64,000 nt of DNA, from positions 1-64,000 of the forward strand of contig JAUCBJ010000916.1 of the NCBI GenBank assembly GCA_032718475.1, in the 5' to 3' direction. The notes below the pieces were generated by a model. That model searched no databases. It was not told the origin of the DNA and was given only the letters and a program-made list of their open reading frames with translations. The position numbers were made by a program, and so were the translations under genes. This document shows, one piece after another, positions 9,001 through 41,600 of this stretch. The stretch comes from Nemertoderma westbladi (lineage: Eukaryota; Animalia; Xenacoelomorpha). Position 1 is the first letter of the stretch. Each line of letters begins with the position of its first letter.

Positions 9001-12000
9001 ACAGTGGATATAAATTATATATAGTAGATTTAAATTACATATAAATCACATACAGTGGATATAAATTATATATAGTAGATTTAAATTACATATAAATTAC
9101 ATACAGTAGATATAAATTACATACAGTAGATATAAATTACATATAGTAGATATAAATTACATATAAATCACATACAGTGGATATAAATTACATATAAATC
9201 ACATACAGTGGATATAAATTATATACAGTAGATTTAAATTACATATAAATCACATACAGTGGATATAAATTATATATAGTAGATTTAAATTACATATAAA
9301 TCACATACAGTGGATATAAATTATATATAGTAGATTTAAATTACATATAAATTACATACAGTAGATATAAATTACATACAGTAGATATAAATTACATATA
9401 GTAGATATAAATTACATATAAATCACATACAGTAGATATAAATTATATATAAATCATATACAGTAGATATAAATTACATACAGTAGATTTAAATTACATA
9501 TAAATCACATTCAGTGGATATAAATTATATACAGTAGATTTAAATTACATATAAATCACATACAGTGGATATAAATTATATACAGTAGATTTAAATTACA
9601 TATAAATTACATACAGCAGATATAAATTACATATAAATCACATACAGTAGATATAAATTACATATAAATCACATACAGTGGATATAAATTATATATAGTA
9701 GATTTAAATTACATATAAATCACATACAGTGGATATAACTTACATATAAATCACATACAGTGGATATAAATTATATACAGTAGATTTAAATTACATATAA
9801 ATCATATACAGTAGATATAAATTACATATAAATCACATACAGTGGATATAAATTATATACAGTAGATTTAAATTACATATAAATCCCATACAGTGGATAT
9901 AAATTATATATAGTAGATTTAAATTACATATAAATTACATACAGTAGATTTAAATTACATATAAATCACATACAGTGGATATAAATTATATACAGTAGAT
10001 TTAAATTACATATAAATCACATACAGTGGATATAAATTATATATAGTAGATTTAAATTACATATAAATCACATACAGTGGATATAAATTATATACAGTAG
10101 ATATAAATTATATATAAATCACATACAGTGGATATAAATTATATACAGTAGATTTAAATTACATATAAATCACATACAGTGGATATAAATTATATATAGT
10201 AGATTTAAATTACATATAAATCATATACAGTGGATATAAATTATATATAGTAGATTTAAATTACATATAAATTACATACAGTAGATATAAATTACATATA
10301 GTAGATATAAATTACATATAAATCACATACAGTGGATATAAATTACATATAAATCACATACAGTGGATATAAATTATATACAGTAGTTTTAAATTACATA
10401 TAAATCACATACAGTGGATATAAATTATATATAGTAGATTTAAATTACATATAAATCACATACAGTGGATATAAATTATATATAGTAGATTTAAATTACA
10501 TATAAATTACATACAGTAGATATAAATTACATACAGTAGATATAAATTACATATAGTAGATAAAAATACATATAAATCACATACAGTAGATATAAATTAT
10601 ATATAAATCACATACAGTATATATAAATTACATACAGTAGATTTAAATTACATATAAATCACATACAGTGGATATAAATTATATACAGTAGATTTAAATT
10701 ACATATAAATCACATACAGTGGATATAAATTATATATAGTAGATTTAAATTACATATAAATTACATACAGTGGATATAAATTATATACAGTAGATTTAAA
10801 TTACATATAAATCACATACAGTGGATATAAATTATATACAGTAGATTTAAATTACATATAAATCATATACAGTAGATATAAATTACATATAAATCACATA
10901 CAGTGGATATAAATTATATATAGTAGATTTAAATTACATATAAATCACATACAGTGGATATAAATTATATATAGTAGATTTAAATTACATATAAATTACA
11001 TACAGTAGATTTAAATTACATATAAATCACATACAGTGGATATAAATTATATACAGTAGATTTAAATTACATATAAATCACATACAGTGGATATAAATTA
11101 TATATAGTAGATTTAAATTACATATAAATCACATACAGTGGATATAAATTATATATAGTAGATTTAAATTACATATAAATTACATACAGTGGATTTAAAT
11201 TATATATAAATCACATACAGTGGATATAAATTATATACAGTAGATTTAAATTACATATAAATCATATACAGTAGATATAAATTACATATAAATCACATAC
11301 AGTGGATATAAATTATATACAGTAGATTTAAATTACATATAAATCACATACAGTAGATATAAATTACATATAAATCACATACAGTGGATATAAATTATAT
11401 ATAGTAGATTTAAATTACATATAAATCACATACAGTGGATATAAATTATATATAGTAGATTTAAATTACATATAAATTACATACAGTAGATTTAAATTAC
11501 ATATAAATCACATACAGTAGATATAAATTATATATAAATCACATACAGTGGATATAAATTATATACAGTAGATTTAAATTACATATAAATCACATACAGT
11601 GGATATAAATTATATATAGTAGATTTAAATTACATATAAATCACATACAGTGGATATAAATTATATACAGTAGATATAAATTATATATAAATCACATACA
11701 GTGGATATAAATTATATACAGTAGATTTAAATTACATATAAATCACAGACAGTGGATATAAATTATATATAGTAGATTTAAATTACATATAAATCACATA
11801 CAGTGGATATAAATTATATATAGTAGATTTAAATTACATATAAATTACATACAGTAGATATAAATTACATATAGTAGATATAAATTACATATAAATCACA
11901 TACAGTAGATTTAAATTACATATAAATCACATTCAGTGGATATAAATTATATACAGTAGATTTAAATTACATATAAATCACATACAGTGGATATAAATTA

Positions 12001-15000
12001 TATATAGTAGATTTAAATTACATATAAATCACATACAGTGGATATAACTTACATATAAATCACATACAGTGGATATAAATTATATACAGTAGATTTAAAT
12101 TACATATAAATCATATACAGTAGATATAAATTACATATAAATCCCATACAGTGGATATAAATTATATATAGTAGATTTAAATTACATATAAATTACATAC
12201 AGTAGATTTAAATTACATATAAATCACATACAGTGGATATAAATTATATACAGTAGATTTAAATTACATATAAATCACATACAGTGGATATAAATTATAT
12301 ATAGTAGATTTAAATTACATATAAATCACATACAGTGGATATAAATTATATACAGTAGATATAAATTATATATAAATCACATACAGTGGATATAAATTAT
12401 ATACAGTAGATTTAAATTACATATAAATCACATACAGTGGATATAAATTATATATAGTAGATTTAAATTATATATAAATCATATACAGTGGATATAAATT
12501 ATATATAGTAGATTTAAATTACATATAAATTACATACAGTAGATATAAATTACATATAGTAGATTTAAATTACATATAAATCACATACAGTGGATATAAA
12601 TTATATATAGTAGATTTAAATTACATATAAATTACATACAGTGGATTTAAATTACATATAAATCACATACAGTAGATATAAATTACATATAAATCACATA
12701 CAGTGGATATAAATTACATATAAATCACATACAGTGGATATAAATTATATATAGTAGATTTAAATTACATATAAATCACATACAGTGGATATAAATTATA
12801 TACAGTAGATTTAAATTACATATAAATCACATACAGTGGATATAAATTATATATAGTAGATTTAAATTACATATAAATTACATACAGTAGATATAAATTA
12901 CATATAAATCACATACAGCGGATATAAATTACATATAAATCACATACAGTGGATATAAATTATATATAGTAGATTTAAATTACATATAAATCACATACAG
13001 TGGATATAAATTATATACAGTAGATTTAAATTACATATAAATCACATACAGTGGATATAAATTATATATAGTAGATTTAAATTACATATAAATTACATAC
13101 AGTAGATTTAAATTACATATAAATCACATACAGTAGATATAAATTATATACAGTAGATTTAAATTACATATAAATCATATACAGTAGATATAAATTACAT
13201 ATAAATCATATACAGTGGATATAAATTATATACAGTAAATTTAAATTACATATAAATCACATACAGTGGATATAAATTATATATAGTAGATTTAAATTAC
13301 ATATAAATCACATACAGTGGATATAAATTATATACAGTAGATTTAAATTACATATAAATCACATACAGTGGATATAAATTATATATAGTAGATTTAAATT
13401 ACATATAAATCACATACAGTGGATATAAATTATATATAGTAGATTTAAATTACATATAAATTACATACAGTGGATATAAATCATATACAGTAGATATAAA
13501 TTACATATAAATCATATACAGTGGATATAAATTATATACAGTAGATTTAAATTACATATAAATCACATACAGTGGATATAAATTATATATAGTAGATTTA
13601 AATTACATATAAATCACATACAGTGGATATAAATTATATATAGTAGATTTAAATTACATATAAATCACATACAGTGGATATAAATTATATATAGTAGATT
13701 TAAATTACATATAAATTATATACAGTAGATTTAAATTACATATAAATCACATACAGTGGATATAAATTATATATAGTAGATTTAAATTACATATAAATCA
13801 CATACAGTGGATATAAATTATATATAGTAGATTTAAATTACATATAAATTACATACAGTGGATTTAAATTACATATAAATCACATACAGTGGATATAAAT
13901 TACATATAAATCACATACAGTAGATATAAATTACATACAGTAGATTTAAATTACATATAAATCACATACAGTGGATATAAATTATATATAGTAGATATAA
14001 ATTACATATAGTAGATATAAATTACATATAAATCACATACAGTAGATATAAATTATATATAGTAGATTTAAATTACATATAAATCACATACAGTGGATAT
14101 AAATTATATACAGTAGATTTAAATAACATATAAATCACATACAGTGGATATAAATTATATATAGTAGATATAAATTACATATAAATCACATACAGTGGAT
14201 ATAAATTACATATAAATCACATACAGTGGATATAAATCATATACAGTAGATATAAATTATATATAAATCACATACAGTAGATATAAATTACATACAGTAG
14301 ATTTAAATTACATATAAATCACATACAGTGGATATAAATTATATATAGTAGATATAAATTATATATAAATCACATACAGTAGATATAAATTACATACAGT
14401 AGATATAAATTACATATAGTAGATATAAATTACATATAAATCACATACAGTAGATATAAATTACATATAAATCACATACAGTGGATATAAATCATATACA
14501 GTAGATATAAATTATATATAAATCACATACAGTAGATATAAATTACATACAGTAGATTTAAATTACATATAAATCACATACAGTGGATATAAATTATATA
14601 CAGTAGATTTAAATTACATATAAATCACATACAGTGGATATAAATTATATACAGTAGATTTAAATTACATATAAATCACATACAGTAGATTTAAATTACA
14701 TATAAATCACATACAGTGGATATAAATTACATATAAATCACATACAGTGGATATAAATTACATATAGTAGATTTAAATTATATATAAATCATATACAGTG
14801 GATATAAATTATATATAGTAGATTTAAATTACATATAAATCACATACAGTAGATTTAAATTACATATAAATCACATACAGTGGATATAAATTATATACAA
14901 TAGATTTAAATTACATATAAATCACATACAGTAGATTTAAATTACATTTAAATCACATACAGTGGATATAAATTATATACAGTAGATTTAAATTACATAT

Positions 15001-16945
15001 AAATCACATACAGTAGATATGAATTACATATAAATCACATACAGTGGATATAAATCATATACAGTAGATATAAATTATATATAAATCACATACAGTAGAT
15101 ATAAATTACATACAGTAGATTTAAATTACATATAAATCACATACAGTGGATATAAATTATATACAGTAGATTTAAATTACATATAAATCACATACAGTGG
15201 ATATAAATTACATATAAATCACATACAGTGGATATAAATCATATACAGTAGATATAAATTATATATAAATCACATACAGTAGATATAAATTACATACAGT
15301 AGATTTAAATTACATATAAATCACATACAGTGGATATAAATTATATACAGTAGATTTAAATTACATATAAATCACATAGTGGATATAAATTATATACAAT
15401 AGATTTAAATTACATATAAATCACATACAGTAGATTTAAATTACATATAAATCACATACAGTGGATATAAATTATATACAGTAGATTTAAATTACATATA
15501 AATCACATACAGTAGATATAAATTACATATAAATCACATACAGTGGATATAAATTACATATAAATCACATACAGTGGATATAAATTATATACAGTAGATT
15601 TAAATTACATATAAATCACATACAGTAGATATAAATTACATATAAATTACATACAGAGGATATAAATTACATATAAATCACATGCAGTGGATATAAATTA
15701 CATACAGTAGATATAAATTACATATAAATCACATACAGTAGATATAAATTACATATAAATTACATACAGTAGATATAAATTACATATAAATCACATACAG
15801 TGGATATTAATTACATACAGTAGATTTAAATTACATATAAATCACATACAGTAGATATAAATTACATACAGTAGATATAAATTACATACAGTAGATATAA
15901 ATTACATATAATTCTCATACAGTGAATATAAATTACATATAAATCACATACAATAGATATAAATTACACATAAATCACATACAGTGGATATAAATTACAT
16001 ACAGTAGATATAAATTACATACAGTAGATATAAATTACATATAAATCACATAAAGTAGATATAAAGTACTTATAAATCACATACAGTGGATATAAATTGC
16101 ATACAGTAGATATAAATTACATATAAATCACATACAGTGGATATAAATTACATATAAATCACATACAGTAGATATAAATCACATACAGTAGATATAAATT
16201 ACATATAAACCACATACAGTGGATATAAATTACATAAAAATTACATACAGTAGATATAAATTACATATAAATCACATACTGTGGATATAAATTACATATA
16301 AATCACATACAGTAGATATAAATCACATACAGTAGATATAAATTATATACAGTAGATATAAATTACATATAAATCACATACAGTGGATATAAATTACATA
16401 TAAATAACATACAGTAGATATAAATTATATATAAATCACATACAGTGGATATAAATTACATATAAATCACATATGGTGGATATAAATTACATACAGTAGA
16501 TATAAATTACATATAAATCACATACAGTGGATATAAATTACATATAAATCACATACAGTAGATATAAATCACATACAGTAGATATAAATTACATATAAAT
16601 CATATACAGTGGATATAACTTACATATAAATCACATACAGTAGATATAAATCACATACAGTAGATATAAATCACATACAGTAGATATAAATTACATATAA
16701 ATCACATACAGTGGATATAAATTACATATAAATTACATACAGTAGATATAAATTACATATAAATCACATACAGTGGATATAAATTAAATATAAATCACAT
16801 ACAGTGGATAAAAATTACATATAAATCAAATACAGTGGATATAAATTACATACAGTGAATATAAATTACATACAGTAGATATAAATCACATACAGTGGAT
16901 ATAAATTACATATAAATCACATACAGTAGATATAAATCACATACA
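1..16945. repeat. AT-rich satellite array built from 11-bp (TATAAATYACA) and 9-bp (TACAGTRGA) words, giving 20-, 31- and 51-bp units
   Basis: Direct periodicity: a 51-bp unit at 1-102 and a 20-bp unit at 121-180. The array runs off the left edge of the window. Confidence 0.97.
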
Positions 16946-18620
16946 ATCTCCCCCGGCGCAACAGGATTGGATCGATTGCGCTGTCGACCATATAGCCACG
17001 GAATTGACAATGGCTCACTGAGCAACTCACTGGCCTCACGGATAATAGCACCAAATCCAATTGGGCGAGGACCCGGTAACTCCGCTGTTTCTCTAAATAG
17101 CTGTAGTTGCTTTACAACATCGTCAACCTAGAATAATATATTTATATTTTATTCCAAAATTGTAACATTACTCAACGCCATTACTATTAACAGCGAGTTG
17201 TTATTTACTACTTTACAACTTTAGTAGAAGCATTTTAAATGTAATTTATATATAGCAGCGGAATTCACAATGGTTCACTGAGCAACTCACTGGCCTCACG
17301 GATAATAGCACCAAATCCAATTGGAAGAGGACCCGGTAACTCCCGCTGTTTCTCTAAATAGCTGTAGTTGCTTTACAACATCGTCAACCTAGAATAATAT
17401 AATATATTTTATTCCAAAATTGTAACATTACTCAACGCCGTTAGTATTAACAGTGTTGCCGTTATTCCCGACACCATGGGGGAAAAACGCCGATGCTGGA
17501 GGCGGAATTTTCAGACCATGGGATTCCGGCCAGTCACCGGATATTGGGAGTGGAGAAGGAGTACTTTCTTAAATGCAAGATTGCGATTGAGAAAACGTTG
17601 CATTGGTTGGATATAATCTTTTAATGTAACTTTCCTACAGTTGAATCTTGATTGAGAATAAGTTGGGCTTCCCCACATCAATATACACCAAATATTCACA
17701 ATAATATACGAACATATAAATTCCTACAGTACATTATTTAATTACCCACTGTTCGCTTTAGATTTTAACCTAACTAATATTCCCCATTTTCCCTCAGTCC
17801 TAGTCTCAGTACCGTAGTGTCGGTGTTGGTCGACCCTGTTGCGTGTCTGTCCCACCCTTCTCGAACCCCGAAGGGATCGGTCATCAGGAAAGCGGTATGG
17901 CTTGGCTAAGGGTCGGTCAAGTTGGTAGACCCGGTTGCGTGTCTGTCCCACCCTTCCCGAACCCCGAAGGGATCGGTCATCAGGAAAGCGGTACAGCTTG
18001 GCTAGGGGTCTGTCGAGTCGGTGGACCCATTTGCGTGTCCGTCCCACCCTTCCCGAACCCCGAAGGGATCGGTCATCAGGAAAGCGGTACGGCTTGGCTA
18101 GGGGTCCGTCAGTTCATCACAGGGACCCAACCACCTAAGCTTTCCGAATCCTTTTCAGGCTCGTAGTCGCTTCGGTAGCCAAGAAGCTGCTCCGAACAGT
18201 CGGTAGGCCAGTGGAGTCCGGTCCTTTGTCTTTCGACCCTGTTGCGTGTCCATCCCACCCTTCCCGAACCCCAAAGGGATCGGTCATCAGGAAAGCGGTA
18301 CGGCTTGGCAAGGGGTCTGTCAGCCCGTCGTGAGTCCCAACTGTTGGTAGTTTTCCGAGTCCTTATTCAGGCTCGTACTAACGCCGGTCGTGGAACCCAC
18401 TCCAGGAAGGCAGTCCTCGTCGAACCCTTCCTCCGTTTAGTCGGTCGACCCATCGCAAGTCCCTGGCGTAGTCAGCAAGCTTTCCGAGTCCTTATTCAGG
18501 CTCGTAATAACTGCCGGTGACCAGGGACCGCTAAGGATCTGTCTGTCGGTTCCCGTCGCAAATCCCTGACACAATCAGCAGACTTTCCGAGTCCTCATTC
18601 AGGCTCGTAATAACTGCTGT
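16946..18620 (-). repeat. GC-rich composite repeat, truncated copy 1 (terminal piece + ~260-bp P units + A unit)
   Basis: Near-identical to 20479-~22311, with the same satellite junction (ataca|atctcccccggcgc). It ends by rejoining the satellite at ctgctgt|agatataaat. Confidence 0.9.
17840..18310 (-). ncRNA. Putative structured RNA: four K-turn/UUCG hairpin units (96-bp period, subfamily A)
   Basis: Minus strand reads TCCT-GAT-GA-C-CGATCCC-TTCG-GGGTTCG-G-GA-AGGG, which matches the K-turn consensus (C-stem, 3-nt bulge, tandem G-A/A-G pairs) with a cUUCGg loop. Folded by eye; there is no expression evidence. Confidence 0.45.
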
Positions 18621-20478
18621 AGATATAAATCACATACAGTGGATATAAATTACATATATATCACATACAGTGGATATAAATCACATACAGTAGATACAAA
18701 TTACATATAAATCATATACAGTAGATATAAATTACATATAAATCACATACAGTGGATATAAATTACATACAGTAGATATAAATTACATATAAATCACATA
18801 CAGTAGATATAAATTACATATAAATTACATACAGTAGATATAAATTACATACAGTAGATATAAATTACATATAAATCACACACAGTGGATATTAATTACA
18901 TACAGTAGATATAAATTACATATAAATCTCATACAGTGAATATAAATTACATACAGTAGATATAAATTACATATAAATCACATACAGTGGATATGAATTA
19001 CATATAAATCACATACAGTGGATATAAATTACATACAGTAGATATAAATTACATACAGTAGATATAAATTACATATAAATCACATAAAGTAGATATAAAG
19101 TACTTATAAATCACATACAGTGGATATAAATGACATACAGTAGATATAAATTACATATAAATCACATACAGTGGATATAAATTACATATAAATCACATAC
19201 AGTAGATATAAATCACATACAGTAGACATAATTCACATACAGTAGATATAAATTACATATAAATCACATACAGTAGATATAAATTACATATAAATCACAC
19301 ACAGTGGATATTAATTACATACAGTGGATATAAATTACATATAAATCACATAAGGTGGATATAAAGTATATACAGTAGATATAAATTACATATAAATTAC
19401 ATACAGTAGATATAAATTACATATAAATCACATACAGTAGATATAAATTATATACAGTAGATATAAATTACATGCAGTGGATATAAATTACATACAGTAG
19501 ATATAAATTACATATAAATCACATACAGTAGATATAAATCACACACAGTAGATATAAATTATATACAGTAGATATAAATTACATATAAATCACATACAGC
19601 AGATATAAATTACATATAAATTACATACAGTAGATATAAATTACATATAAATCACATACAGTGGATATAAATTACATATAAATCACATACGGTGGATATA
19701 AATTACATACAGTAGATATAAATTACACATAAATCACATACCGTGGATATAAATTACATATAAATTACATACAGTAGATATAAATCACATACAGTAGATA
19801 TAAATTACATATAAATCATATACAGTGGATATAAATTACATACAGTAGATATAAATCACATACAGTAGATATAAATTACATATAAATCACATACCGTGGA
19901 TATAAATTACATATAAATTACATACAGTAGATATAAATCACATACAGTAGATATAAATTACATATAAATCATATACAGTGGATATAAATTACATACAGTA
20001 GATATAAATTACACATAAATCACATACCGTGGATATAAATTACATATAAATTACATACAGTAGATATAAATCACATACAGTAGATATAAATTACATATAA
20101 ATCACATACAGTGGATATAAATTACATATAAATCACATACAGTAGATATAAATCACATACAGTAGATATAAATTACATATAAATCACATACAGTGGATAT
20201 AAATTATATATAAATTACATACAGTAGATATAAATTACATATAAATCACATACAGTGGATATAAATTAAATATAAATCACATACAGTGGATATAAATTAC
20301 ATATAAATCAAATACAGTGGATATAAATTACATACAGTGGATATAAATTACATACAGTAGATATAAATCACATACAGTGGATATAAATTACATATAAATC
20401 ACATACAGTAGATATAAATCACATACAGCGGATATAAATTACATATAAATCACATACAGTAGATATAAATCACATACA
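18621..20478. repeat. Second block of the AT-rich satellite
   Basis: Same 9/11-bp words. It shares rare variants with 15.6-16.9 kb, e.g. taaagtagatataaagtactta at ~16051 and ~19085. Confidence 0.97.
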
Positions 20479-21625
20479 ATCTCCCCCGGCGCAACAGGAT
20501 TGGATCGATTGCGCTGTCGACCATATAGCCACGGAATTGACAATGGCTCACTGAGCAACTCACTGGCCTCACGGATAATAGCACCAAATCCAATTGGGCG
20601 AGGACCCGGTAACTCCGCTGTTTCTCTAAATAGCTGTAGTTGCTTTACAACATCGTCAACCTAGAATAATATACTTATATTTTATTCCAAAATTGTAACA
20701 TTACTCAACGCCGTTAGTGTTAACAGCGAGTTGTTATTTACTACTTTACAACTTTAGAAGCATTTTAAATGTAATTTATATATAGCAGCGGAATTGACAA
20801 TGGCTCACTGAGTAACTCACTGGCCTCACGGATAATAGCACCAAATCCAATTGGAAGAGGACCCGGTAACTCCGCTGTTTCTCTAAATAGCTGTAGTTGC
20901 TTTACAACATCGTCAACCTAGAATAATATATTTATATTTTATTCCAAAATTGTAACATTACTCAACGCCGTTAGTATTAACAGCGAGTTGTTATTTACTA
21001 CTTTACAACTTTAGAAGCATTTTAAATGTAATTTATATATAGCAGCGGAATTGACAATGGCTCACTGAGCAACTCACTGGCCTCACGGATAATAGCACCA
21101 AATCCAATTGGAAGAGGACCCGGTAACTCCGCTGTTTCTCTAAATAGCTGTAGTTGCTTTACAACATCGTCAACCTAGAATAATATATTTCTATTTTATT
21201 CCAAAATTGTAACATTACTCAACGCCGTTAGTATTAACAGTGTTGCCATTATTCCCGACACCATGGGGGAAAAACGCCGATGCTGGAGGCGGAATTTTCA
21301 GACCACGGGATTCCGGCCAGTCACCGGATATTGGGAGTGGAGAAGGAGTACTTTCTTAAATGCAAGATTGCGATTGAGAAAACGTTGCATTGGTTGGATA
21401 TAATCTTTTAATGTAACTTTCCTACAGTTGAATCTTGATTGAGAATAAGTTGGGCTTCCCCACATCAATATACACCAAATATTCACAATAATATACGAAC
21501 ATATAAATTCCTACAGTACATTATTTAATTACCCACTGTTCGCTTTAGATTTTAACCTAACTAATATTCCCCATTTTCCCTCGGTCCTAGTCTCAGTACC
21601 GTAGTGTCGGTGTCGGTCGACCCTG

Positions 21626-22005
21626 TTGCGTGTCCGTCCCACCCTTCCCGAACTCCTAAGGGATCGGTCATCAGGAAAGCGGTACGGCTTGGCTAGGGGT
21701 CTGTCGAGTTGGTGGACCCGTTTGCGTGTCCGTCCCACCCTTCCCGAACCCCGAAGGGATCGGTCATCAGGAAAGCGGTACGGCTTGGCTAGGGGTCCGT
21801 CGGTTCAGCACAGGGACCCAACCACCTAAGCTTTCCGAATCCTTTTCAGGCTCGTAGTCGCTTCGGTAGCCGAGAAGCTGCTCCGAACAGTCGGTAGGCC
21901 AGTGGAGTCCGGTCCTTTGTATTTCGACCCCGTTGCGTGTCTGTCCCACCCTTCCCGAACCCCAAAGGGATCGGTCATCAGGAAAGCGGTACAGCTTGGC
22001 AAGGG
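21626..22005 (-). ncRNA. Putative structured RNA: three K-turn hairpin units (subfamily A)
   Basis: Same motif as 17840-18310. Loop variants UUAG and UUUG occur in two copies. Confidence 0.4.
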
Positions 22006-22849
22006 GTCTGTCAGCCCGTTGTGAGTCCCAACTGTTGGTAGTTTTCCGAGTCCTTATTCAGGCTCGTACTAACGCCGGTCGTGGAACCCACTCCAGGAAG
22101 GCAGTCCTCGTCGAAACCTTCCTCCGTTTAGTCAGTCGACCCGTCACAAGTCCCTGGTGTAGTCGGCAAGCTTTCCGAGTCCTTATTCAGGCTCGTAATA
22201 ACTGCCAGTGACCAGGGACCGCTAAGGATCTGTCTGTCGGTTCCCGTCGCAAATCCCTGACACAATCAGCAGACTTTCCGAGTCCTTATTCAGGCTCGTA
22301 ATAACTGCTGTTGGCCAGGGACCGCTAAGGGCAGTCCTTGTCCCTAGGCCTAGCGAGTTACCAAATCCACCTCTACAGGCAGCAGGAAGTTGGCTAGGCC
22401 TAATAGTATTCAGGTAAACCTGAGTACTGCTTGATTTTGCCTCCCACCCTTGGCCCTTATGTTGCCGTTATCCCTACACCAGGGGGGAAAAACGCCGATG
22501 CTGGAGACGTGACTTTACAGACCACCGAGCCCCGGCCAGTCACCGGATATTGATTGTGGAGAAGGAATGTTTTCTGAGATGCAAGTTTGCGGTTGATAAA
22601 AAGCTGCATTAGTTGGATATACTCTTTAATGTAACTTCCTACAGTTGAAACCTGATTAAGAATAATTTTGGGCTTCCCCAAATCAATATACACCAAATAT
22701 TCACAATAATTATACACGATAATATAAATCCCTACTGAATACTGCTTAATTACCCACTGTTCGCTCAGATTTTAGCCTACCTAATGTTCCCCAGATTTTT
22801 CCCTTGGTCCTAGTCTTAGTGCCGTAGTGTCGGTGTCGGTCGACCCTGT

Positions 22850-23625
22850 CGCGTGTCCGTTCCACCCCTCACGAACCCCGAAGGGAACGATCATCGAGAA
22901 CCAGCACGGCTTAGCTAAGGGTCGGTCCAGTCGGTGGACTCTGTCGCGTATCCGTACCGCCCCTCTCGAACCCCGAAGGGATCGGTCATCGAGAACCAGT
23001 ACGGCTTGGCTAGGAGTCTGTCGTGTCGGTGGACCCGTTCGCGTGTCCGTTCCACCCCTCACGAACCCCGAAGGGTTCGATCATCGAGAACCAGAACGGC
23101 TTGGCTAGGGGTCCGTCGGTTCATCGCAGAAACCCAACCACCTAGGCTTTCCGAGTCCCTTTCAGGCTCGTAGTCGCTTCGGCAGCCGAGAAACTGCTCC
23201 GAACAGTCGGTAGGCCAGTAGAGTCTAGTCCTTTGTCTTTCGACCCCGTCGCGTGTCCGTCCCACCCCTCACGAACCCCGAAGGGAACGATCATCAAGAA
23301 CCAGTACGGCTTGGCTAAGGGGTCTGTCGTCGGTTCCCGTCGCAGATCCCCGGTACAAGCAGTCAGCGTTCCGAGTTATTTTCAGTCTCGTAATAGCTGC
23401 CGTTGACCAGAGACCGCTAAGGGCAGTCCTCGTCAAACCCGTCCTGTGGCCAGCCCTTTCGCATGTCCGTCCCACCCCTCGCGAACCCCGAAGGGATTGG
23501 TCATCGAGAACCAGTACGGCTTAGCTCAGGGGGCAGTCGTTAGTCGGCCACCCGTTCGCGTGTCCGCTCCACCCCTCACGAACCCCGAAGGGTTCGATCA
23601 TCGAGAACCAGAACGGCTTGGCTAC
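22850..23625 (-). ncRNA. Putative structured RNA: six K-turn/UUCG hairpin units (subfamily B)
   Basis: Minus strand reads TCTC-GAT-GA-T-CG..CCC-TTCG-GGG..CG-T-GA-GGGG. The K-turn core is kept although the flanking pairs differ from subfamily A. Confidence 0.45.
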
Positions 23626-24129
23626 TAAGGGGCTGTCGTTTCCCTAACTTATATTTATTTCTTATATTTATTTATTTCCTCCAAAATTATAAAATAAAAA
23701 TAACGCCCAATACCCTACAAAATTGATTGCTGGGTTGATTGGTGTGAGCTTCCGCTATAGCATAGCTAGTGTAGTTTTAGCTCACCCCTGCATCTGGAGA
23801 GTTCTAGAATGTTTAAAGTAAATTTAATTATACAGATAGGTGGGTGCGGTGCGGTTGACTGCTGTCGGAATTTTATAAATATTTGTTTTTTCCTGCATGT
23901 AAAAAAATAAATTTGTGGTATGTACAAGACTGCATAGCAAACTGATGATAACCAATAGGGGAGAATGTATATGTAAAGAAAAAAGTATGAAACTATATAT
24001 ATGACGCAAAATATGTAAAGGAAAATATATTTATATAACGCAAGTTGTTGATAACCAATTGGGGAGAATGTATATGAAAAAAGGATAATGAAAAAATATA
24101 TGTATGCTATTGAAATTGAAATGGTTTAA

Positions 24130-27100
24130 TCATATCTGCAGTAAGTGGTATTTTAATTTTTTCTTAAATATCGCCAGGTTTCGACTGTCCCTAATAAGTT
24201 GTGATAATGAGTTCCACAAAAGTGGCCCTTGCATAGATAATGAAAGATGGCGAACATCCAAACGAGCCGGAGGTAAATGATACAGGCCAGAGGAAGCAGA
24301 GCGAGTATTATATGAGTGAACCGAAGAGGCTTTAGTAAAGAGGTAAGCTAGAGGGTGAGATGGATTATTATGGACTTCAAACATGAGTATTAGCACCTGG
24401 TATTTATAGAGGAGATCTAGAGGTAGGATACGTAATTGTTGGTAGATGGGATAGGATGAGGATTGAGAATGATTAAATGTGATACAACGCAATATCTTAT
24501 TGATTTTTATTTTCAAAGGATCTGTGTTTGACTTGTAAGTGCCGCCCCAAACAATCAAGCCATAGAAAATGTAAGGATAAATTAATGTATTAAAAAGCAT
24601 GCGGAGTAACTCTCTAGAAAGTATATGTCGAAGTTTATAGAACAGTCCACCTGTTTTAGAAATTTTTTTAAGTATGTATTTAATGTGCGCCTTAAATGTG
24701 AGTTTATCATCTATAATTATGCCTAAGTATTTTGCAGCGGACGTGTATCTGATGGGTTTGTTGTTGATATTAATTGTTGTGCTTGGTAAGTTGAAATTTT
24801 GCGAGAATGTAAATATGGAGTATTCTGTTTTATCGGTGTTTAAGGTTAATTTATTATCTATCAGCCAATCATTAATTAAATTACTTTCGGTATTTATAGT
24901 ATTAGTTAATCTGGTTATGTTACTATCGTGGAACATGAGAGATGTATCGTCTGCAAACAAAGTGGCAATGAGAGAGGTTGCATTTGGGAGATCATTTATA
25001 TAAAGTAAAAAAAGAATTGGGCCTAGTACCGAACCTTGCGGGATACCACAGGTGATTGAATTGACTAAAGATGACGTAACACCTAATGAAACAAACTGTT
25101 TACGATTGGATAAGTAATCTGAGAAAATCGACAGAGGGGTACCGCGTATACCATATGACTGAAGTTTCTTTATAAGGATGGAGTGGTCAAGAGTATCAAA
25201 TGCCTTACGGAGGTCTATATATACTAAACAAGAGGATTGATGATTATCGAGAGCATTTCGAATTGACTCCACTATATTTATTACTGCATATGATGTGGTG
25301 AATTTTTTCCGGAAGCCGAATTGATTACGCGAAATTACATTGAATTTATTAAGGTATGCTATAAGCTGGTTGTATAAAACTGTTTCGAAAATTTTATGGA
25401 AAACAGGGAGGAGGGAGATTGGACGGTAGTTTGTAGGAAGAAATGGGTTACCACCCTTATAAGCTGGAATGACCTTTGCTAACTTAAGACAATCAGGAAA
25501 ATGCCCTAGTCGTAAACTGAGATTAATCAAGCTACATAAATGAGTAGATATAAATGGGGCCGCAAGCTTTACTAAAGAAATCGGAAAATCGTCATTGGAG
25601 GCGCACTTCTCATCTAATTGTAAAATGATGTAATGAATTTCAGCGGGAGATGTTTCTGAAAGTCCGAAGGAATTGGATTTGGAATGTCTTACATGGCGAG
25701 TAGGACAACGAGAACTTGAAGCAAATTGTGAAGCAAGTTGAGGACCAATGTTGGAAAAGAAATTGTTAAAGGCGTTGGCTATATCAGCTGGATTGGAGAG
25801 AGAAATAATTTCCCTGTCTTTGTCCACGTTTAATCTCTTTGGTGTTGATGTTTTTGCAGAACGGTGTAATAAAGAGTTTAATGTTTTCCAAGTCTTACGC
25901 ATATTATTAGAATTTTTATTGAATTCGGAGTTGTAGTATTGTTTTTCAGCTGCTCTAAGTAGTGTGGTTAATTTATTTCTGTATAATTTATAACGATTAT
26001 GATTTTCAGTTGTGGGTGATTTAGAATATATTGCGTATAATAAGTTTTTCTTTTTTATTCCTAAAATTAGCGATTTTGTGAGCCAAGGTTTCTTTGGAAC
26101 ATCTCGTTTTTGTACAACCACGGAGGGAAGGTTATCCTTGCAAATATTTGTGAAGTCATCATAAAAACTTTCTAGTTTAAGTTTGTCAGGGGTGTTATTA
26201 GCTGAATATCTAAAGGAAAAGTTTCGTACATCATTAGTAAACCTATCTTTATTAAATTGTGAGTAATCGTAAGTGCGCTTTGTATCAGGAGGAAGAAAAA
26301 ACATAGAATAATCAGTTAAAACCATGAAAGTAGGAAGGTGGTCGGTAGTACCAGTTTCTGTTAAAAATACACCAGGTGAGCAAATAGATGAGTGTATATT
26401 ACAAAGGATGTGGTCTATAGTAGATCTAGAATAGGGAGTGATACGAGTATGTTGGTTTATAGTTTGAGTGAAGCCGTTAGAAGATATTGTATTAATATAT
26501 TCACTAGTACGAGGCTTATTTGGTTTAGAAACATCAATATTATAATCACCGGTTATAACAACGTCGTAATTTGTTGAGGCCAATTTGGAAAGTGTATCAT
26601 TAAAACCTTTATTAAAACTATCAAATTCTATTTCGTCTGAGCGATAAATACATCCAATTATTAAGGGCTTATTAGGGTGAGGCCTCGCCACTTCTATCCA
26701 GCAATTTTCAGGGCCGTTGAAATGAAGGTCGGGTCGTATTGATGTTTCTAAATCGGAGCGCGCATAAATAGCCGTGCCTCCTCTGGCTAGTCTCTTACCC
26801 CATTTTCGAAAATCACAGTAAGGTTCCTTAAAACCACGAACGGCAACTTCATTTAATACACTATCTTTAGTTAAAAACGTTTCAGAAAAAGTCAGAATGT
26901 CGAAATTGGCATTCATAGATTCCAAAAAATTTGTTATTGCACATATATTTGCGTTTAAGCTCCTGCAATTTAAATGCATTAATGAAAAATTCGATCTGCT
27001 GTCATTTCCGTAAAATTGGTTATCAAATATTGTTTCATTAAAGTAATCCCCTAGAATCAAATTGCAATTCAAGTTATCGTCAGGATTAATATCACTAAAG

Positions 27101-27420
27101 ATGTTGCCAGCAGCCTGTATGTCTTCACAATTAACTTCACCCGTTTCATTAGAAAATATATCGAGATCGTCATTTTCAACACTACCAAAAGGAAATAGAT
27201 AATGATAACAAAAATTGCACCAGTGTGATAAAATGGTAGTGTCTGAAAAATCGATAGTCTCAAAGAATGAACCACATTGTCGGTGATATTTCTGTTTACA
27301 AAGATTGCAGTTGATAATTAAATCTGAATTTTGAAAAGTTGAAAAACAAAGACCGCACCCAATGCCAACAGCCGTCGTCGCACTACCACTATAATTAGTG
27401 TCTGACGCAATTTGTTGCAT
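24130..27420 (-). CDS. LINE ORF2 (1096 aa): N-terminal PHD-like finger, APE endonuclease, reverse transcriptase
   Basis: PHD pattern CGLC..CNLC..H..C..WCNFC. APE motifs HLNCRSL, SETFL, GDYNID, IDHI, TDH. RT motifs NYRPISLL, QFGFR, DLRKAFD, GIPQGSVLGP, FADD, KYLG. Confidence 0.95.
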   Translation of the reverse strand: MQQIASDTNYSGSATTAVGIGCGLCFSTFQNSDLIINCNLCKQKYHRQCGSFFETIDFSDTTILSHWCNFCYHYLFPFGSVENDDLDIFSNETGEVNCEDIQAAGNIFSDINPDDNLNCNLILGDYFNETIFDNQFYGNDSRSNFSLMHLNCRSLNANICAITNFLESMNANFDILTFSETFLTKDSVLNEVAVRGFKEPYCDFRKWGKRLARGGTAIYARSDLETSIRPDLHFNGPENCWIEVARPHPNKPLIIGCIYRSDEIEFDSFNKGFNDTLSKLASTNYDVVITGDYNIDVSKPNKPRTSEYINTISSNGFTQTINQHTRITPYSRSTIDHILCNIHSSICSPGVFLTETGTTDHLPTFMVLTDYSMFFLPPDTKRTYDYSQFNKDRFTNDVRNFSFRYSANNTPDKLKLESFYDDFTNICKDNLPSVVVQKRDVPKKPWLTKSLILGIKKKNLLYAIYSKSPTTENHNRYKLYRNKLTTLLRAAEKQYYNSEFNKNSNNMRKTWKTLNSLLHRSAKTSTPKRLNVDKDREIISLSNPADIANAFNNFFSNIGPQLASQFASSSRCPTRHVRHSKSNSFGLSETSPAEIHYIILQLDEKCASNDDFPISLVKLAAPFISTHLCSLINLSLRLGHFPDCLKLAKVIPAYKGGNPFLPTNYRPISLLPVFHKIFETVLYNQLIAYLNKFNVISRNQFGFRKKFTTSYAVINIVESIRNALDNHQSSCLVYIDLRKAFDTLDHSILIKKLQSYGIRGTPLSIFSDYLSNRKQFVSLGVTSSLVNSITCGIPQGSVLGPILFLLYINDLPNATSLIATLFADDTSLMFHDSNITRLTNTINTESNLINDWLIDNKLTLNTDKTEYSIFTFSQNFNLPSTTININNKPIRYTSAAKYLGIIIDDKLTFKAHIKYILKKISKTGGLFYKLRHILSRELLRMLFNTLIYPYIFYGLIVWGGTYKSNTDPLKIKINKILRCITFNHSQSSSYPIYQQLRILPLDLLYKYQVLILMFEVHNNPSHPLAYLFTKASSVHSYNTRSASSGLYHLPPARLDVRHLSLSMQGPLLWNSLSQLIRDSRNLAIFKKKLKYHLLQI

Positions 27421-27679
27421 TATACAATGTGTTATGTTGCAATATTTATCTTAAGTGGCCGCTAAAATTCAAATTACATTCCCCAGCAACCAATGTGGTA
27501 TATACCGGTATCTACCTATAATCTATTATAGTATATATCCGGTATAACACATGTCATATATGATACACTAAACGTGGACCAGAATTAAATGTTTTACACG
27601 TAATACGCATTATATACACAAATTACATATTGATGTCCTAAATAAGGTTCTAATATATATATATAGCCCAAACCACCGG

Positions 27680-28400
27680 TATAAAAAGTATTTAGTATAA
27701 TATATCGTGCCCTGAATATATATAAAAAATAGAAATACATAGTTTAAACTTCTATTATATAAAGCCCATACTAACGGTATAACACGTAATAGTACAACAT
27801 ATTGTACCGTGATAGTATAATATATCGTACCCTGAATATATATATATAAAATAGAAATACATAGTTTAAACTTCTATTATATAAAGCCCATACTAACGGT
27901 ATAACACGTAATAGTACAACATATTGTACCGTGATAGTATAATATATCGTACCCTGAATATATATATATAAAATAGAAATACATAGTTTAAACTTCTATT
28001 ATATAAAGCCCATACTAACGGTATAACACGTAATAGTACAACATATTGTACCGTGATAGTATAATATATCGTACCCTGAATATATATATATAAAATAGAA
28101 ATACATAGGTTAAACTTATATTATAGCCCATACTAACGGTATAACACGTAATAGTACAACATATTGTACCGTGATAGTATAATATATCGTACCCTGAATA
28201 TATATATATAAAATAGAAATACATAGGTTAAACTTATATTATAGCCCATACTAACGGTATAACACGTAGGCCTAATAGTACAACATATTGTACCGTGATA
28301 GTATAATATATCGTACCCTGAATATATATATATAAAATAGAAATACATAGGTTAAACTTCTATTATTGCCCATACTAACGGTATAACACCTATTAGTTTA
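27680..28400. repeat. ~118-124-bp tandem repeat (about 6 copies) in the LINE inter-ORF spacer
   Basis: ctaacggt recurs at 27771, 27893, 28015, 28133, 28251 and 28375. Confidence 0.92.
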
Positions 28401-28830
28401 ATATATCACCGATATACTGATATAGGCCCTAGTACATAATGGTACAGTATTGGCATTATATATCGCAGCCCTTCTAGCCTATATTACCAGAAGGTAAAGA
28501 AATAAAAATAAATCAAAAAAAGAAATAATAATAAATCAAGACTTAGCCAATAATAGAAAAATAAACCAAAATGCAACTTCAAATTTTCCGGACTAACAGC
28601 ATATTCACTTGTTACTGTTATATAGGCTCTAATAGTAATGAGTAAGACTACAATAGAAAAATAAATGGACTGACCGACATGCAGATTTATACCAGTATGT
28701 AGAGATTTTAATGTTTGGGGAAAGCATCAACGTCGAAATACAGCTCGGAACATTCATTATAGTAGTATGTTAGCTAAACCCAAGAAATTGGTGGGTCATA
28801 CCAATTTAACAAAAAAACCAGTAAGATAAA

Positions 28831-29580
28831 TTACCTGTTCCTGTTCCCTTCATTGACCATATGGGATGGACTGACTTGGAGGGCACGAATAGCCACGACA
28901 TCAGAATCCGAACATATCTTCTTTGGTATCGATTTCTCCGCGGTGCAAACAAATACAGATCCATTGCGTGTGAAGTAAGAGAATATTAACTTAGCCCGAT
29001 GTAATTCGCGCACGCGGGTAATTAATTTCGAGCCCGTGGGGGTAAGATGTTCCGTAATCGATAAAGGACGCTTCAACTTTTTCTTATTAACCAAGGCAGT
29101 TATACGAGCGCTGTGGCCGTAGAACCGAATAATTAATAGTCGAGGTTTTGGTGGCTCGCTTGTTAAAGAAGACGAATGCGTGGCCGAGGGACCAGTCGGC
29201 TTCGATGTTTTACCTAACCTGTGGTACAAATCAACGTCACTAATCGAGAGGTTTAGAGGGGATAGCACTTCTGAGATAAGCTGATGACGCTCTTCGTCGG
29301 GGCTGACCACCTCTGGAAGGTGATGAACAAGTATGTTGTGGCGTCGTTGATAAGAGGTAAGCTCTTCGTTATCGTGATGGAGTTCCGCCTGTTGTCTCTG
29401 TATTGTTGTATTGGTCTCGGTAATTACTCGATTGTTGGTTTCGAGATTATCCAATCTCGAACAAACTGCAACGATTTCAGATCGTGATTCGCGAACGTCT
29501 TTTATTATGTCAGACTGGCCCTGTTGTAGATCGTCAAGACGGGCGAGGATTTCCTCGCCCACATCTTTCCACGTAGGCAT
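28831..29580 (-). CDS. LINE ORF1 (249 aa): coiled coil plus L1-ORF1p-like RRM/CTD nucleic-acid-binding protein
   Basis: Heptad-rich N-terminus, then motifs RRHNILVHHLPE, HRLGK, PRLLIIRF, ITEHLT and FTRNGSVFV, typical of this ORF1 class. It lies upstream of ORF2 on the same strand. Confidence 0.85.
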   Translation of the reverse strand: MPTWKDVGEEILARLDDLQQGQSDIIKDVRESRSEIVAVCSRLDNLETNNRVITETNTTIQRQQAELHHDNEELTSYQRRHNILVHHLPEVVSPDEERHQLISEVLSPLNLSISDVDLYHRLGKTSKPTGPSATHSSSLTSEPPKPRLLIIRFYGHSARITALVNKKKLKRPLSITEHLTPTGSKLITRVRELHRAKLIFSYFTRNGSVFVCTAEKSIPKKICSDSDVVAIRALQVSPSHMVNEGNRNR

Positions 29581-30553
29581 AACTAGGCCTTTCTGCCTTT
29601 TCCACAGATTCAGCCTACAGAAGTCGAGAAGAGTAGGTCAGTCACTGATTGTAGGTTGATTGGCAGACTACAATTTGAAAATTCCCAGTTCCGGAGGTCC
29701 CACGAATTACTGGTATCAGGCGAGTACAGACTGACAGAGTACTTGATTAAAGTCAGCGTAGAGTGGTTTATGGCTCAGGCAGTGGGCAGGATCATGGCAA
29801 TATGGATGCGCATCTCAATAATTAAAGAGTTCAAAATGGGGCCATTAGGCCTAATTCAATACCGGTATTTGCAACACAACAGCAGACAATCAGAGCACAC
29901 ACATACTGCTGTACTGCTGTACTAACCCACAAACTCACCTTCCCGTCGCAAATCCCTGACACAAGCAGTCAGCGGTCCGAGTTCTTTTCAGTCTCATAAT
30001 AGCTGCTGTTGGCCAGGGACCGCTAAGGGCAGGCTTGTCCTTTAGGCCTGGTGCATTACCAAATCCACCCCTACAGGCAGCAGGAAGTTGGCCAGGGCCT
30101 AATAGTACTCAGGCCAACCTGAATACTGCTTGAATTTTCCATCCCCCCCTGGCCCTTATAACTATGAAATTATTCCCGTACCCTGTAAGTCGCCCCAAAG
30201 TTCGCCCATAAATCGCCCCCAGTTTATTGAATGTGCCCAAAACCCATGGTCCCGCACCCAGTAGTAATATCGGAATAATCAATTTTAATAAAATACAAAA
30301 ATATTCAACTCGCGTTATGGAAAGTTGAAATACCGCGAACAGTCCCCCCCAATGCCTGATTAAGAATAATTTTGGGCTTCCCCAAGTCAATATACACCAA
30401 ATATTCACAATAATTATACACGATAATATAAATCCCTACTGAATACTGCTTAATTACCCACTGTTCGCTCAGATTTTAGCCTACCTAATGTTCCCCAGAT
30501 TTTTCCCTTGGTCCTAGTCTTAGTGCCGTAGTGTCGGTGTCGGTTGACCCTGT

Positions 30554-31330
30554 CGCGTGTCCGTTCCACCCCTCACAAACCCCGAAGGGAACGATCATCG
30601 AGAACCAGCACGGCTTAGCTAAGGGTCGGTCCAGTCGGTGGACTCTGTCGCGTATCCGTACCGCCCCTCTCGAACCCCGAAGGGATCGGTCATCGAGAAC
30701 CAGTACGGCTTGGCTAGGAGTCTGTCGTGTCGGTGGACCCGTTCGCGTGTCCGTTCCACCCCTCACGAACCCCGAAGGGTTCGATCATCGAGAACCAGAA
30801 CGGCTTGGCTAGGGGTCCGTCGGTTCATCGCAGAAACCCAACCACCTAGGCTTTCCGAGTCCCTTTCAGGCTCGTAGTCGCTTCGGCAGCCGAGAAACTG
30901 CTCCGAACGGTCGGTAGGCCAGTAGAGTCTAGTCCTTTGTCTTTCGACCCCGTCGCGTGTCCGTCCCACCCCTCACGAACCCCGAAGGGAACGATCATCA
31001 AGAACCAGTACGGCTTGGCTAAGGGGTCTGTCGTCGGTTCCCGTCGCAGATCCCCGGTACAAGCAGTCAGCGTTCCGAGTTATTTTCAGTCTCGTAATAG
31101 CTGCCATTGACCAGAGACCGCTAAGGGCAGTCCTCGTCAAACCCGTCCTGTGGCCAGCCCTTTCGCATGTCCGTCCCACCCCTCGCGAACCCCGAAGGGA
31201 TCGGTCATCGAGAACCAGTACGGCTTAGCTCAGGGGGCAGTCGTTAGTCGGCCACCCGTTCGCGTGTCCGCTCCACCCCTCACAAACCCCGAAGGGTTCG
31301 ATCATCGAGAACCAGAACGGCTTGGCTACT
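30554..31330 (-). ncRNA. Putative structured RNA: six K-turn/UUCG hairpin units (subfamily B, second unit)
   Basis: Near-identical duplicate of 22850-23625. Confidence 0.45.
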
Positions 31331-32377
31331 AAGGGGCTGTCGTTTCCCGTCGCAAATCCCTGACACAAGCAGTCAGCGGTCCGAGTTCTTTTCAGTCTCG
31401 TAATAGCTGCTGTTGGCCAGGGACCGCTAAGGGCAGTCCTTGTCCTTTAGGCCTGGTGCATTACCAAATCCACCCCTACAGGCAGCAGGAAGTTGGCCAG
31501 GGCCTAATAGTACTCAGGCCAACCTGAATACTGCTTGAATTTTCCATCCCCCCCTGGCCCTTATAACTATGAAATTATTCCCGTACCCTGTAAGTCGCCC
31601 CAAAGTTCGCCCATAAATCGCCCCCAGTTTATTGAATGTGCCCAAAACCCATGGTCCCGCACCCAGTAGTAATATCGGAATAATCAATTTTAATAAAATA
31701 CAAAAATATTCAACTCGCGTTATGGAAAGTTGAAATACCGCGAACACCTTAAATATCTGATATGAGTCCCGTGCCCTGTAAGTCGCCCCAATATTCGCCC
31801 GTAAATCGCCCCCAGTCCATTGAATATACCCAAATTCCATGTTCCCGCACCCAGTACTGATATTGGAATATTCATTATAAATAAATCCCAAAAATATTCA
31901 ACTCGTGTTATGAAAAGTTGAAATACCGCGAACAAACAGCGAGTTGTTATTTACAACTTTACAACTTTAGAAGCATTTTAAATGTAATTTATATATAGCA
32001 GCGGAATTGACAATGGCTCACTGAGCAACTCACTGGCCTCACGGATAATAGCACCAAATCCAATTGGGCGAGGACCCGGTAACTCCGCTGTTTCTCTAAA
32101 TAGCTGTAGTTGCTTTACAACATCGTCAACCTAGAATAATATACTTATATTTTATTCCAAAATTGTAACATTACTCAACGCCGTTAGTGTTAACAGCGAG
32201 TTGTTATTTACTACTTTACAACTTTAGAAGTCAAGACATTAATGCGACCACTATCTCTGTGACTACGCATTGCTAAACCGTTTCTCCCTATAACAAATAT
32301 ATATAAGAAAATTTGAATATTTAAAAACCAATATTATACCTGAAATACTATATTTATTTTGTGATTTTATTTTATCT

Positions 32378-40715: not shown

Positions 40716-41600
40716 TGTAATTGTGTAATTGTTGTAATTGTGCTGGATTACGCAATGAGGACGGCCACAAAGGGTGAAGATCTGGGATTCACACTTCAAG
40801 AACGCAGAAGTAGTAGATATCCGGCAACTACAGTCACAGACACCGACTTTGCGGATGACATCGCCCTGCTCTCTAATACGCTAGCAGATGCACAGCTTCT
40901 ACTAAATAAAGTGGAGAGGGCTGCTATGGAGGTTGGATTGCATATAAATGCTACCAAGACCGAATTCATGACTTTTAATGTTGATGGAAACTTGACAACC
41001 ATTGATAATAATCAACTAAGGAAGGTCGATGACTTCCAGTACCTTGGATCGTGGATAGAGAGTAGCAAAAAGGACATAGAAGTTAGGAAAGCAAAGGCTT
41101 GGGTAGCTCTATCAAAAATGGATACCATCTGGAAATCAGATCTCTCCAGGCACCTGAAGACCAAGTTCTTTCGAGCCACAGTGGAAAGTGTATTTTTATA
41201 CGGGGGTGAGACCTGGACACTGACTAAATCACTTGAACAACGAATTGATGGTTGCTACACAAGACTACTAAGAGCAGCCCTAAACATCAGCTGGAGACAA
41301 CACATGACAAACGCCGAGCTTTATGGTACAATACCTCCAGTATCAACCACACTCCGTGAACGCAGATTAAGATTCAGTGGGCACTGCTGGCGAAGTAAAG
41401 ACGAGGTCATACCAGATCTACTTTTCTGGCAAACAACTCATGGAAAGCGTAGTCGTGGACGACCTGCCATAACATATATAGATCAACTTGAAAGGGATAC
41501 TGAACTTGGGAGAAACGAAATTGCGACAACTATGGAGAATCGGGAAGCCTGGAAGGATCTCATTTCCACTGTCCGAGTTCGCTCGACCTAGTAGTAGTAG
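40716..41600 (+). mobile_element. 5'-truncated RTE-clade retrotransposon (element B) nested in element A
   Basis: Open RT C-terminal half (DTDFADDIAL, FQYLGS, RFSGHCWR, RGRP..T) and a (TAG)n tail. 12-bp TSD TATCAAAAAAGA at 40704-40715 and 41601-41612. Confidence 0.92.

Follow-up and report, generated by a model that had tools for sequence, protein, structure and literature searches.

The 64,000-nt stretch of the Nemertoderma westbladi genome considered here (contig JAUCBJ010000916.1, positions 1-64,000, hereafter the window) carries a dense array of predicted RNA hairpins, and the question that it raises is what kind of element bears such an array and to what end. A previous sequence-only reading had described about 19 kink-turn (K-turn) hairpins, in clusters of 4+3+6+6, on the minus strand of a non-coding repeat. 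This count was borne out, since the 35-nt motif occurs in exactly 19 copies distributed as 4, 3, 6 and 6, and the K-turn reading is available on the minus strand only. The K-turn hairpins alternate with a second hairpin type (N; 14 copies) which is devoid of the K-turn, and they sit in four copies of a repeat that is identified here, with high confidence on the basis of its sequence, as the long terminal repeat (LTR), in minus-strand reading, of an LTR retrotransposon that is abundant. The array is not a free-standing RNA gene. The LTR carrier is of a known kind, and the K-turn RNA array in its probable U3 (unique 3′) region is the new part. The earlier proposal of a structured non-autonomous retroelement therefore holds as regards the retroelement context, the element being very likely an LTR and not a SINE-like (short interspersed element) or stand-alone non-coding element.

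The repeat carrying the hairpins

The LTR copies, their hairpin clusters and the marks of their insertion are as follows; the K-turn cores are given by position on the plus strand, each range or list opening with plus-strand starts.

17454..18618, minus: LTR A1, cut off by an AT-rich satellite; four K-turn and four N-type hairpins; a segmental duplicate sharing the left flank of A2
17855-17889, 17951-17985, 18047-18081 and 18258-18292, minus: K-turn cores of A1
21236..21240, partner 31935-31939: 5-bp target duplication AACAG of LTR A
21241..22459, minus: main part of LTR A2 (3′ part of U3, R, U5), with minus-strand end GGCAACA; subfamily B is inserted into A2
21642-21676, 21738-21772 and 21949-21983, minus: K-turn cores of A2
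21833..22303, minus: four N-type hairpins of A2, with a sarcin-ricin-like internal loop replacing the K-turn
31752..31934, minus: first 183 bp of U3 of LTR A2, starting TGTTCGCGG; split off by insertion B
22455..22459, partner 31747-31751: 5-bp target duplication CCTTA of insertion B
22460..23644, minus: left part of LTR B1, the 3′ LTR of insertion B (U5, R, most of U3); six K-turn and two N-type hairpins; sharp family end at 22460
22865..23606, minus: six K-turn cores of B1, starting at 22865, 22960, 23055, 23265, 23475 and 23572
29945..30341, minus: right part of LTR B1 (last N-type hairpin, 5′ hairpins, GC boxes), starting TGTTCGCGG
30342..30354, minus: internal remnant CATTGGGGGGGAC, a candidate polypurine tract
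30355..31746, minus: LTR B2, which is the 5′ LTR of insertion B and holds U3 and ~17 nt beyond the putative start; six K-turn and three N-type hairpins; 99.3% identical to B1
30569..31310, minus: six K-turn cores of B2, starting at 30569, 30664, 30759, 30969, 31179 and 31276

The repeat is called an LTR on account of its TGTT...AACA ends, two 5-bp target duplications and a polypurine tract (PPT) remnant. The termini lie at 21241/31934, 22460/30341 and 31746, the LTR lengths are 1402 and 1582 bp, and elements A and B span TGTTGCC to CCGCGAACA on the plus strand. Element A (21241-22459 plus 31752-31934) is bracketed twice by AACAG and element B (22460-31746) twice by CCTTA; each duplication is exactly 5 bp long, with a chance expectation of ~1.2e-3, and one is found at both of the two complete insertions. 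Ends of the TG...CA type, with TGTT/AACA as inverted repeats, together with duplications of 5 bp and a PPT ahead of the 3′ LTR, are hallmarks of LTR retrotransposons (PMC3601003, PMC6317226), for which the integrase end consensus is TGTTRNR...YNYAACA (PMC3601003). Between the two B copies lie 13 nt (minus-strand reading CATTGGGGGGGAC) that immediately precede the TG start and include a PPT-like G7 tract 2 nt ahead of the TG of B1 (a single instance). From the orientation of this tract, the sense strand of the element is very probably the minus strand, which is also that of the K-turns.

Across ~1390 bp, B1 and B2 show 9 substitutions and 1 indel, and both lie inside one target duplication, B2 being a partial LTR copy. 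When DNA contigs were aligned to the junction between the subfamilies, their depth stepped from ~2,200 to ~25,000 at 22460; the seven loose-end rows at 22458-22460 have flanks that differ from each other, and the sequence to the left of 22460 runs on in other copies into a 188-bp module. Because of this sharp family end and these differing flanks, the apparent A-B tandem is read as a nested insertion of B in A. In runs X1 and X3 the contig depth sums to 2x10^3 to 2x10^5, compared with ~10^2 in the neighbouring bin; this indicates that the array-bearing family is very abundant, the depth figure not being a copy number. Insertion B is laid out as U3 plus ~17 nt of R (the repeated region), the PPT and a full LTR, all within one target duplication (window 30342-30371), and its break lies 4 nt past the putative self-primer, as expected for reverse transcription of an interior-less template. 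A splice origin of the B2-PPT junction (CAG/GT in B) was set aside, the donor not being kept in A.

The position of the array within the LTR depends on where transcription starts and ends, for which the following candidate signals, all on the minus strand, were found.

21407..21412 (in B, 22625-22630): ATTAAA, a poly(A)-signal-like hexamer, followed by a U-rich stretch
21438..21450 (in B, 22655-22667 and 30359-30371): putative transcript start and self-primer
21467..21475 (also 17680, 22685 and 30389): TATA-like GTGTATATT, a presumptive promoter box
31560..31623 (also 30155-30218 and, in A, 31748-31811): three GC-box-like GGGCGA motifs and a TATAAG

The TATA-like GTGTATATT is located ~20-25 nt upstream of the putative start in all four copies, and ATTAAA with its U-rich stretch ~35-40 nt downstream of it in both subfamilies. 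The flank that follows the LTR end, seen in two studies (five contigs of run X1, with consensus agreement 0.69, and one contig of run X3), is complementary, after a 2-nt gap, to an LTR segment ~208 nt before the end; the match comprises 12 of 13 letters, and its site is orthologous in the two subfamilies. Letters matching without interruption number 11 in A (equalled in 9/3000 shuffles) and 9 in B (219/3000). This flank may tentatively be regarded as the primer-binding site (PBS) of a Tf1-type self-priming system, in which the ~11 nt that open the transcript are complementary to the PBS (PMC7175516). Given the TATA-like box, the PBS-complementary segment and the conserved AUUAAA, the transcript start and poly(A) site probably lie near the LTR end, which would place the array in U3 and in the 3′ tail of the genomic RNA; U3, R and U5 (the unique 5′ region) would then measure ~1190-1375, ~60 and ~145 nt, respectively. 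The GGGCGA boxes and TATAAG ahead of the array would serve as an enhancer or second promoter. ATTAAA and the putative primer segment (21407-21450) are predicted to share one long stem, which could hide the poly(A) signal of the 5′ LTR.

The sequence-only reading knew of no described family that matches, and the searches agree with it. Rfam returned at E<=5 only two chance-level matches (mir-558 and sR36), neither on a K unit, and no description of a K-turn array in an LTR was found in literature titles and abstract openings, where coverage is thin for subscription journals. The strict motif pattern had no match in the metagenome collection and the looser pattern none in the viral collection; a looser pattern gave seven single matches in metagenomes, confined to the motif and showing no likeness to other parts of the LTR, and four single matches came from prokaryote genomes. 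Several identities were tried and rejected. For box C/D snoRNAs, RTGATGA is found nowhere in A2, B1 or B2 and once in A1, outside the K units, 4b.4n is C-G in 16/16 rows and not G-C, and the only Rfam match, sR36, is a chance one (E 1.6). The core of a selenocysteine insertion sequence (SECIS) has AUGA/GA, an 11-12-bp helix II and an apical AA; the present hairpins have a 7-bp stem with a UUCG loop and no Rfam match. A SINE was rejected as neither ARAGORN nor Rfam detected a tRNA-like head, and the 64-kb window contains no tRNA. Helitrons and Helentron-associated interspersed elements (HINEs) were ruled out by the 5-bp duplications and TG...CA ends, and a group I intron and a simple satellite were both rejected.

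Other mobile and repeated sequences surround the LTRs:

23645..29944, minus: unrelated long interspersed element (LINE) inside B1, with a TTCCC duplication (23640-23644 / 29940-29944)
24130-27450 and 28831-29637, minus: LINE open reading frames (ORFs), endonuclease-reverse transcriptase (RT) and ORF1-like, respectively

The 5-bp TTCCC duplication marks the later insertion of the LINE into B1 and, since it sits in that LTR, the LINE is younger than insertion B, whose LTRs differ by 0.7%. It looks full-length (23645-29944), its endonuclease-RT frame being open over 1106 aa from stop to stop. Between its two ORFs lie six ~122-bp tandem units (27693-28397) with motifs CCGGTATA/GGTATAAC, possibly a Helentron-type non-autonomous element. 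Two plus-strand LINE-like RT frame fragments occur at 39636-42554, with RVT_1 matches in two of three frames. An AT-rich satellite with a 51-bp period occupies window positions 1-16920 and 18619-20478, and the 257-bp repeats and LTR A were duplicated together with it. The 48-bp end of the 257-bp repeat (21193-21240) shows very high contig depth and many unrelated flanks; it is the terminus of another abundant mobile element, into the terminal hairpin of which LTR A inserted.

Sequence and folding of the array

Each K-turn forms the tip of a predicted ~85-nt hairpin, in which P1 is followed by an internal loop, a 2-bp stem and a 4x4 loop, and then by P2, the canonical (C) stem, the K-turn, a 7-bp stem and the UUCG loop. 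The K-turn consensus proposed earlier, a 3-nt bulge followed by G.A/A.G pairs between two stems, is present by sequence in 19/19 copies, as are the invariant GAU-GA and GA; the cUUCGg cap attributed to the hairpins is intact in 16 of them and altered in the other three. The core had been described as unchanged while its neighbours change compatibly. Its constancy holds throughout and the changes around it are structure-compatible, in more states than the two described: the -1 pair is C-G in 10, U-A in 7 and U-G in 2 (n=19), 3b.3n is U.U in 8, C.G in 6, C.A in 3 and C.C in 2 (n=19), and 4b.4n is C-G in all units (16/16 rows). Scanned for generic K-turns, the 64-kb window yielded no match on the plus strand and 14 on the minus strand, namely 13 array units and one site in an unrelated tandem repeat. 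A covariance model made from the 19 copies recovered the same 19 in the window at E<=1 and none besides, a recovery that follows by construction; at this threshold it did not match the N units. Independence of the copies is limited, A1 and A2 being 96-99% identical segmental duplicates and B1 and B2 being 99.3% identical, so that only 10 unit types in two subfamilies are available and the statistics are modest. By self-comparison, subfamilies A and B are 83-93% alike, depending on the region.

Within these bounds, the RNA structure of the array is likely to be under selection, as judged from the pattern of sequence change. Pairing on the K-hairpin structure is retained in 90.4% of 416 cells, against 30-57% for slid partners. 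Double changes affect the -1 pair (U-A/C-G), a P2 pair (U-A/A-U), one P1 pair and a second P2 pair (C-G/U-A), a fifth apparent case (columns 4-88) being excluded as an alignment-register artefact. Cells shared between sisters (9 sister pairs, 21 pairs; n=181, with P1 omitted from the sister-state count for reasons of alignment register) comprise 135 Watson-Crick, 31 G-U and 15 other states, and the distinct sister-shared states include 6 G-U vs 0 A-C (P=0.016). The assignment of the minus strand as the RNA strand is supported both by the K-turn reading and by folding, which is better on that strand in 16/16 units tested (9 K and 7 N; energy and z). Further compensatory changes between A and B are found in the 5′ hairpins and in U5, where only two or three sequences can be compared.

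In the N units, the internal loop is A-N-U-A opposite G-A-A in 12 copies and G-A-C in 2 (n=14), with a bulged base that is U in 8, C in 4 and G in 2. A basal CCC-UUA-GC / GC-GAC-GGG module is, by eye, common to the K and some of the N units. Shorter arrays also appear to exist. An 886-nt contig of run X6, filed under a different organism code, lies on window 22236-22917 with ~91-95% likeness and carries an abbreviated LTR in which a single K unit abuts the last N unit (that X6 is RNA is only a guess). Joints in X1, X3 and X4 point to forms having 1, 2 or 3 K units, and some of these joints may be repeat-mapping artefacts.

Possible roles of the array

It is tentatively proposed, by analogy and at somewhat under an even chance, that the array is a multivalent U3 cis element recruiting host L7Ae-family proteins for RNA export, stability or packaging. 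The hairpins would constitute a repeated RNA signal in U3, carried in the 3′ tail of the genomic RNA, on which several host K-turn-binding proteins (Snu13/15.5K or a ribosomal L7Ae-family protein) would dock; the bound protein would help to export, stabilise or package the RNA of the element, the step served being the least certain part, and the number of K units may be tuned by unequal recombination. That the units fold as real K-turns with a host L7Ae-family protein is an expectation to which we give slightly better than an even chance. In studied K-turns, a Watson-Crick 3b.3n pair folds poorly without protein, U.U is intermediate, and C.A and C.C fold in ions (PMC8191799, PMC5689011), and K-turns failing in ions still fold upon binding L7Ae or 15.5K (PMC8191799, PMC4382518, PMC5689011). 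Since 3b.3n is C.G or U.U in 14/19 K-turns, these look protein-assisted, and this reading was chosen for that reason together with a precedent by position: the RcRE of HERV-K is a 433-nt structured element in U3, and constitutive transport elements (CTEs) measure 0.16-1.4 kb (PMC11379458).

Several observations weigh against a protein-recruiting RNA element of this kind. Five of the 19 K-turns (C.A, C.C) should fold without protein, and tandem repeats in U3 are common as DNA enhancers (PMC3601003). The constancy of the GA bases relative to their flanks, which the sequence-only reading had put up for checking, is not significant for the four G/A bases (P=0.11) and reaches P=0.018 for seven core bases, a statistic which is weak because 42/72 columns are invariant anyway. 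One pair of the non-canonical (NC) stem is a U.U mismatch in 13/16 distinct rows; each double change amounts to about one event, among only 10 unit types, and the tool cautions that its shuffle counts are not probabilities; and ViennaRNA, which has no K-turn model, favours Watson-Crick pairing in shifted registers that take in the GA bases, above all in A units. As to the carrier, neither gag nor pol nor an internal region in complete form came to light in the 64-kb window, the scanned ORFs being LINE-like, and the PBS-like flank rests on the one five-contig consensus (0.69) and one contig, with an exact match of only 9 nt in B; a tRNA-type PBS was likewise not seen after the 5′ LTR. A wider version of the proposal, in which a modular U3 device of tunable copy number, made of two motifs of ribosome/snoRNP type (K-turns and sarcin-ricin-like loops), multivalently hijacks host K-turn-binding proteins so as to route the RNA of the element, and solo LTRs may make a ~1.1-kb RNA titrating those proteins, is speculative and rather unlikely.

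The same motifs may instead be architectural, the K-turns and sarcin-ricin-like loops giving a compact or dimerising U3 tail that is read by the Gag or RT of the element for packaging, dimerisation or strand transfer, with no host L7Ae-family protein involved. Two recurrent 3D motifs do alternate on hairpins of similar length, all 14 N units having A-N-U-A / G-A-(A/C), and 4b.4n C-G in all units and -1b.-1n C-G in 10/19 favour ion-induced folding. GAAA-like loops cap the N units, and the CAAG or UAAG / ACAC internal loop of the K units may resemble a tetraloop receptor. However, 14/19 K-turns belong to 3b.3n classes that fold poorly or partly, and at the end of short UUCG-closed apical hairpins a kink would mainly offer a binding surface, so that this reading is considered unlikely.

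Less probable again is a second transcription unit within U3, whereby every solo LTR would yield a ~1.0-1.25 kb polyadenylated hairpin non-coding RNA acting as a decoy or scaffold for K-turn proteins. In both subfamilies the first hairpin is immediately preceded by the three GGGCGA motifs and TATAAG (TATTTAAG in A), the structured region begins ~25-30 nt past the TATAAG box and ATTAAA lies downstream of the array, as such a unit would have it; yet the promoter motifs are consensus matches only, and the first ~190 bp could equally be an enhancer of the downstream promoter.

A role at the level of DNA is held to be of about as low a probability, or slightly lower. Here the array would be a U3 enhancer or spacer, an ancestral palindrome amplified by slippage, and its match to K-turns incidental. 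The frequency of U3 tandem repeats, the small number of independent lineages and the weak core invariance are all compatible with this; of the 13 differences between sisters, 9 fall in stems and 4 of those 9 break a pair; and single-stranded DNA folds about equally well on both strands (2 units), the plus-strand loop c(GAA)g being a stable DNA mini-hairpin. Against it stand the 6-to-0 asymmetry of G-U over A-C, the minus-strand folding advantage in all 16 units, the compensatory changes, and the fact that the two hairpin types bear different RNA 3D motifs at the corresponding position.

A hammerhead-ribozyme identity or origin of the units (retrozyme-like, or with a split core and a K-turn arm) is very improbable: CUGAUGA-stem-GAAG is the reading of A-type K units, and CUGA and GAAA are found in N units, but CUGANGA is absent from either strand of both B copies, A has GAAG for GAAA, G8 is replaced and stems I/II are not evident in the N units, no Rfam hammerhead matched at E<=5, the insertion marks are of the LTR integrase type, and the accessible part of a paper on permuted hammerheads makes no mention of kink-turns (PMC10085705).

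If the recruitment of host L7Ae-family proteins is correct, the U3 K-turn array would represent a new route of host hijacking via that family, and a multivalent scaffold of K-turns occurring in nature, whose folding rules are graded within one RNA; if binding fails, an unusually structured but ordinary LTR would be left. The PBS-like match further hints at self-priming in an invertebrate-like animal. How Rev-less LTR retrotransposons export, stabilise and package their unspliced RNA is known for few elements.

Comparison with known systems

The hairpins resemble standard k-turns (Kt-7, the U4 snRNA 5′ stem-loop and box C/D) in having a 3-nt bulge, G.A/A.G pairs and canonical flanking stems (PMC8191799, PMC4382518, PMC5689011); they differ in being multivalent, with 3-6 per LTR, and in lying inside a mobile element. 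Box C/D is matched by the U.U at 3b.3n in 8/19 array K-turns, whereas 4b.4n is C-G here rather than G-C and there is no RUGAUGA box in A2, B1 or B2. The N units are reminiscent of the sarcin-ricin motif, or eukaryotic loop E, in their predicted A-N-U-A opposite G-A-A or G-A-C beside a stem (PMC8450098), and depart from it in that the bulged base is G in just 2/14; non-G bulges in this motif are rare and less stable (PMC8450098).

The carrier resembles Ty3/Gypsy (Metaviridae) LTRs, in particular those of self-priming Tf1/sushi-type elements, in its TGTT/AACA ends, the 5-bp duplication and the PPT before the 3′ LTR, in having TATA-like as well as poly(A)-like signals close to the end of the LTR, and in a tentative PBS-position sequence complementary to an LTR segment (PMC3601003, PMC6317226, PMC4600332, PMC7175516). 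Unlike in these LTRs, the probable U3, of 1.2-1.4 kb, is filled here with 8-9 structured hairpins of ~85-110 nt, and no K-turn array in Ty3/Gypsy or Tf1/sushi-type elements turned up in the accessible portions of the literature searched. The RcRE differs from the array in that it binds the element's own Rec and, in the part of the source available, no K-turn repeats are described for it (PMC11379458). The likeness to retroviral transport elements drawn here is one of position and structure: as in the RcRE of HERV-K(HML-2), the CTE of Mason-Pfizer monkey virus (MPMV), the transport element of MusD (MTE) and the MER11 CTE, a long structured cis-RNA would lie within U3 or next to it, at the genomic RNA's 3′ end, and the total length of the array is similar to that of these elements, at 0.16-1.4 kb (PMC11379458).

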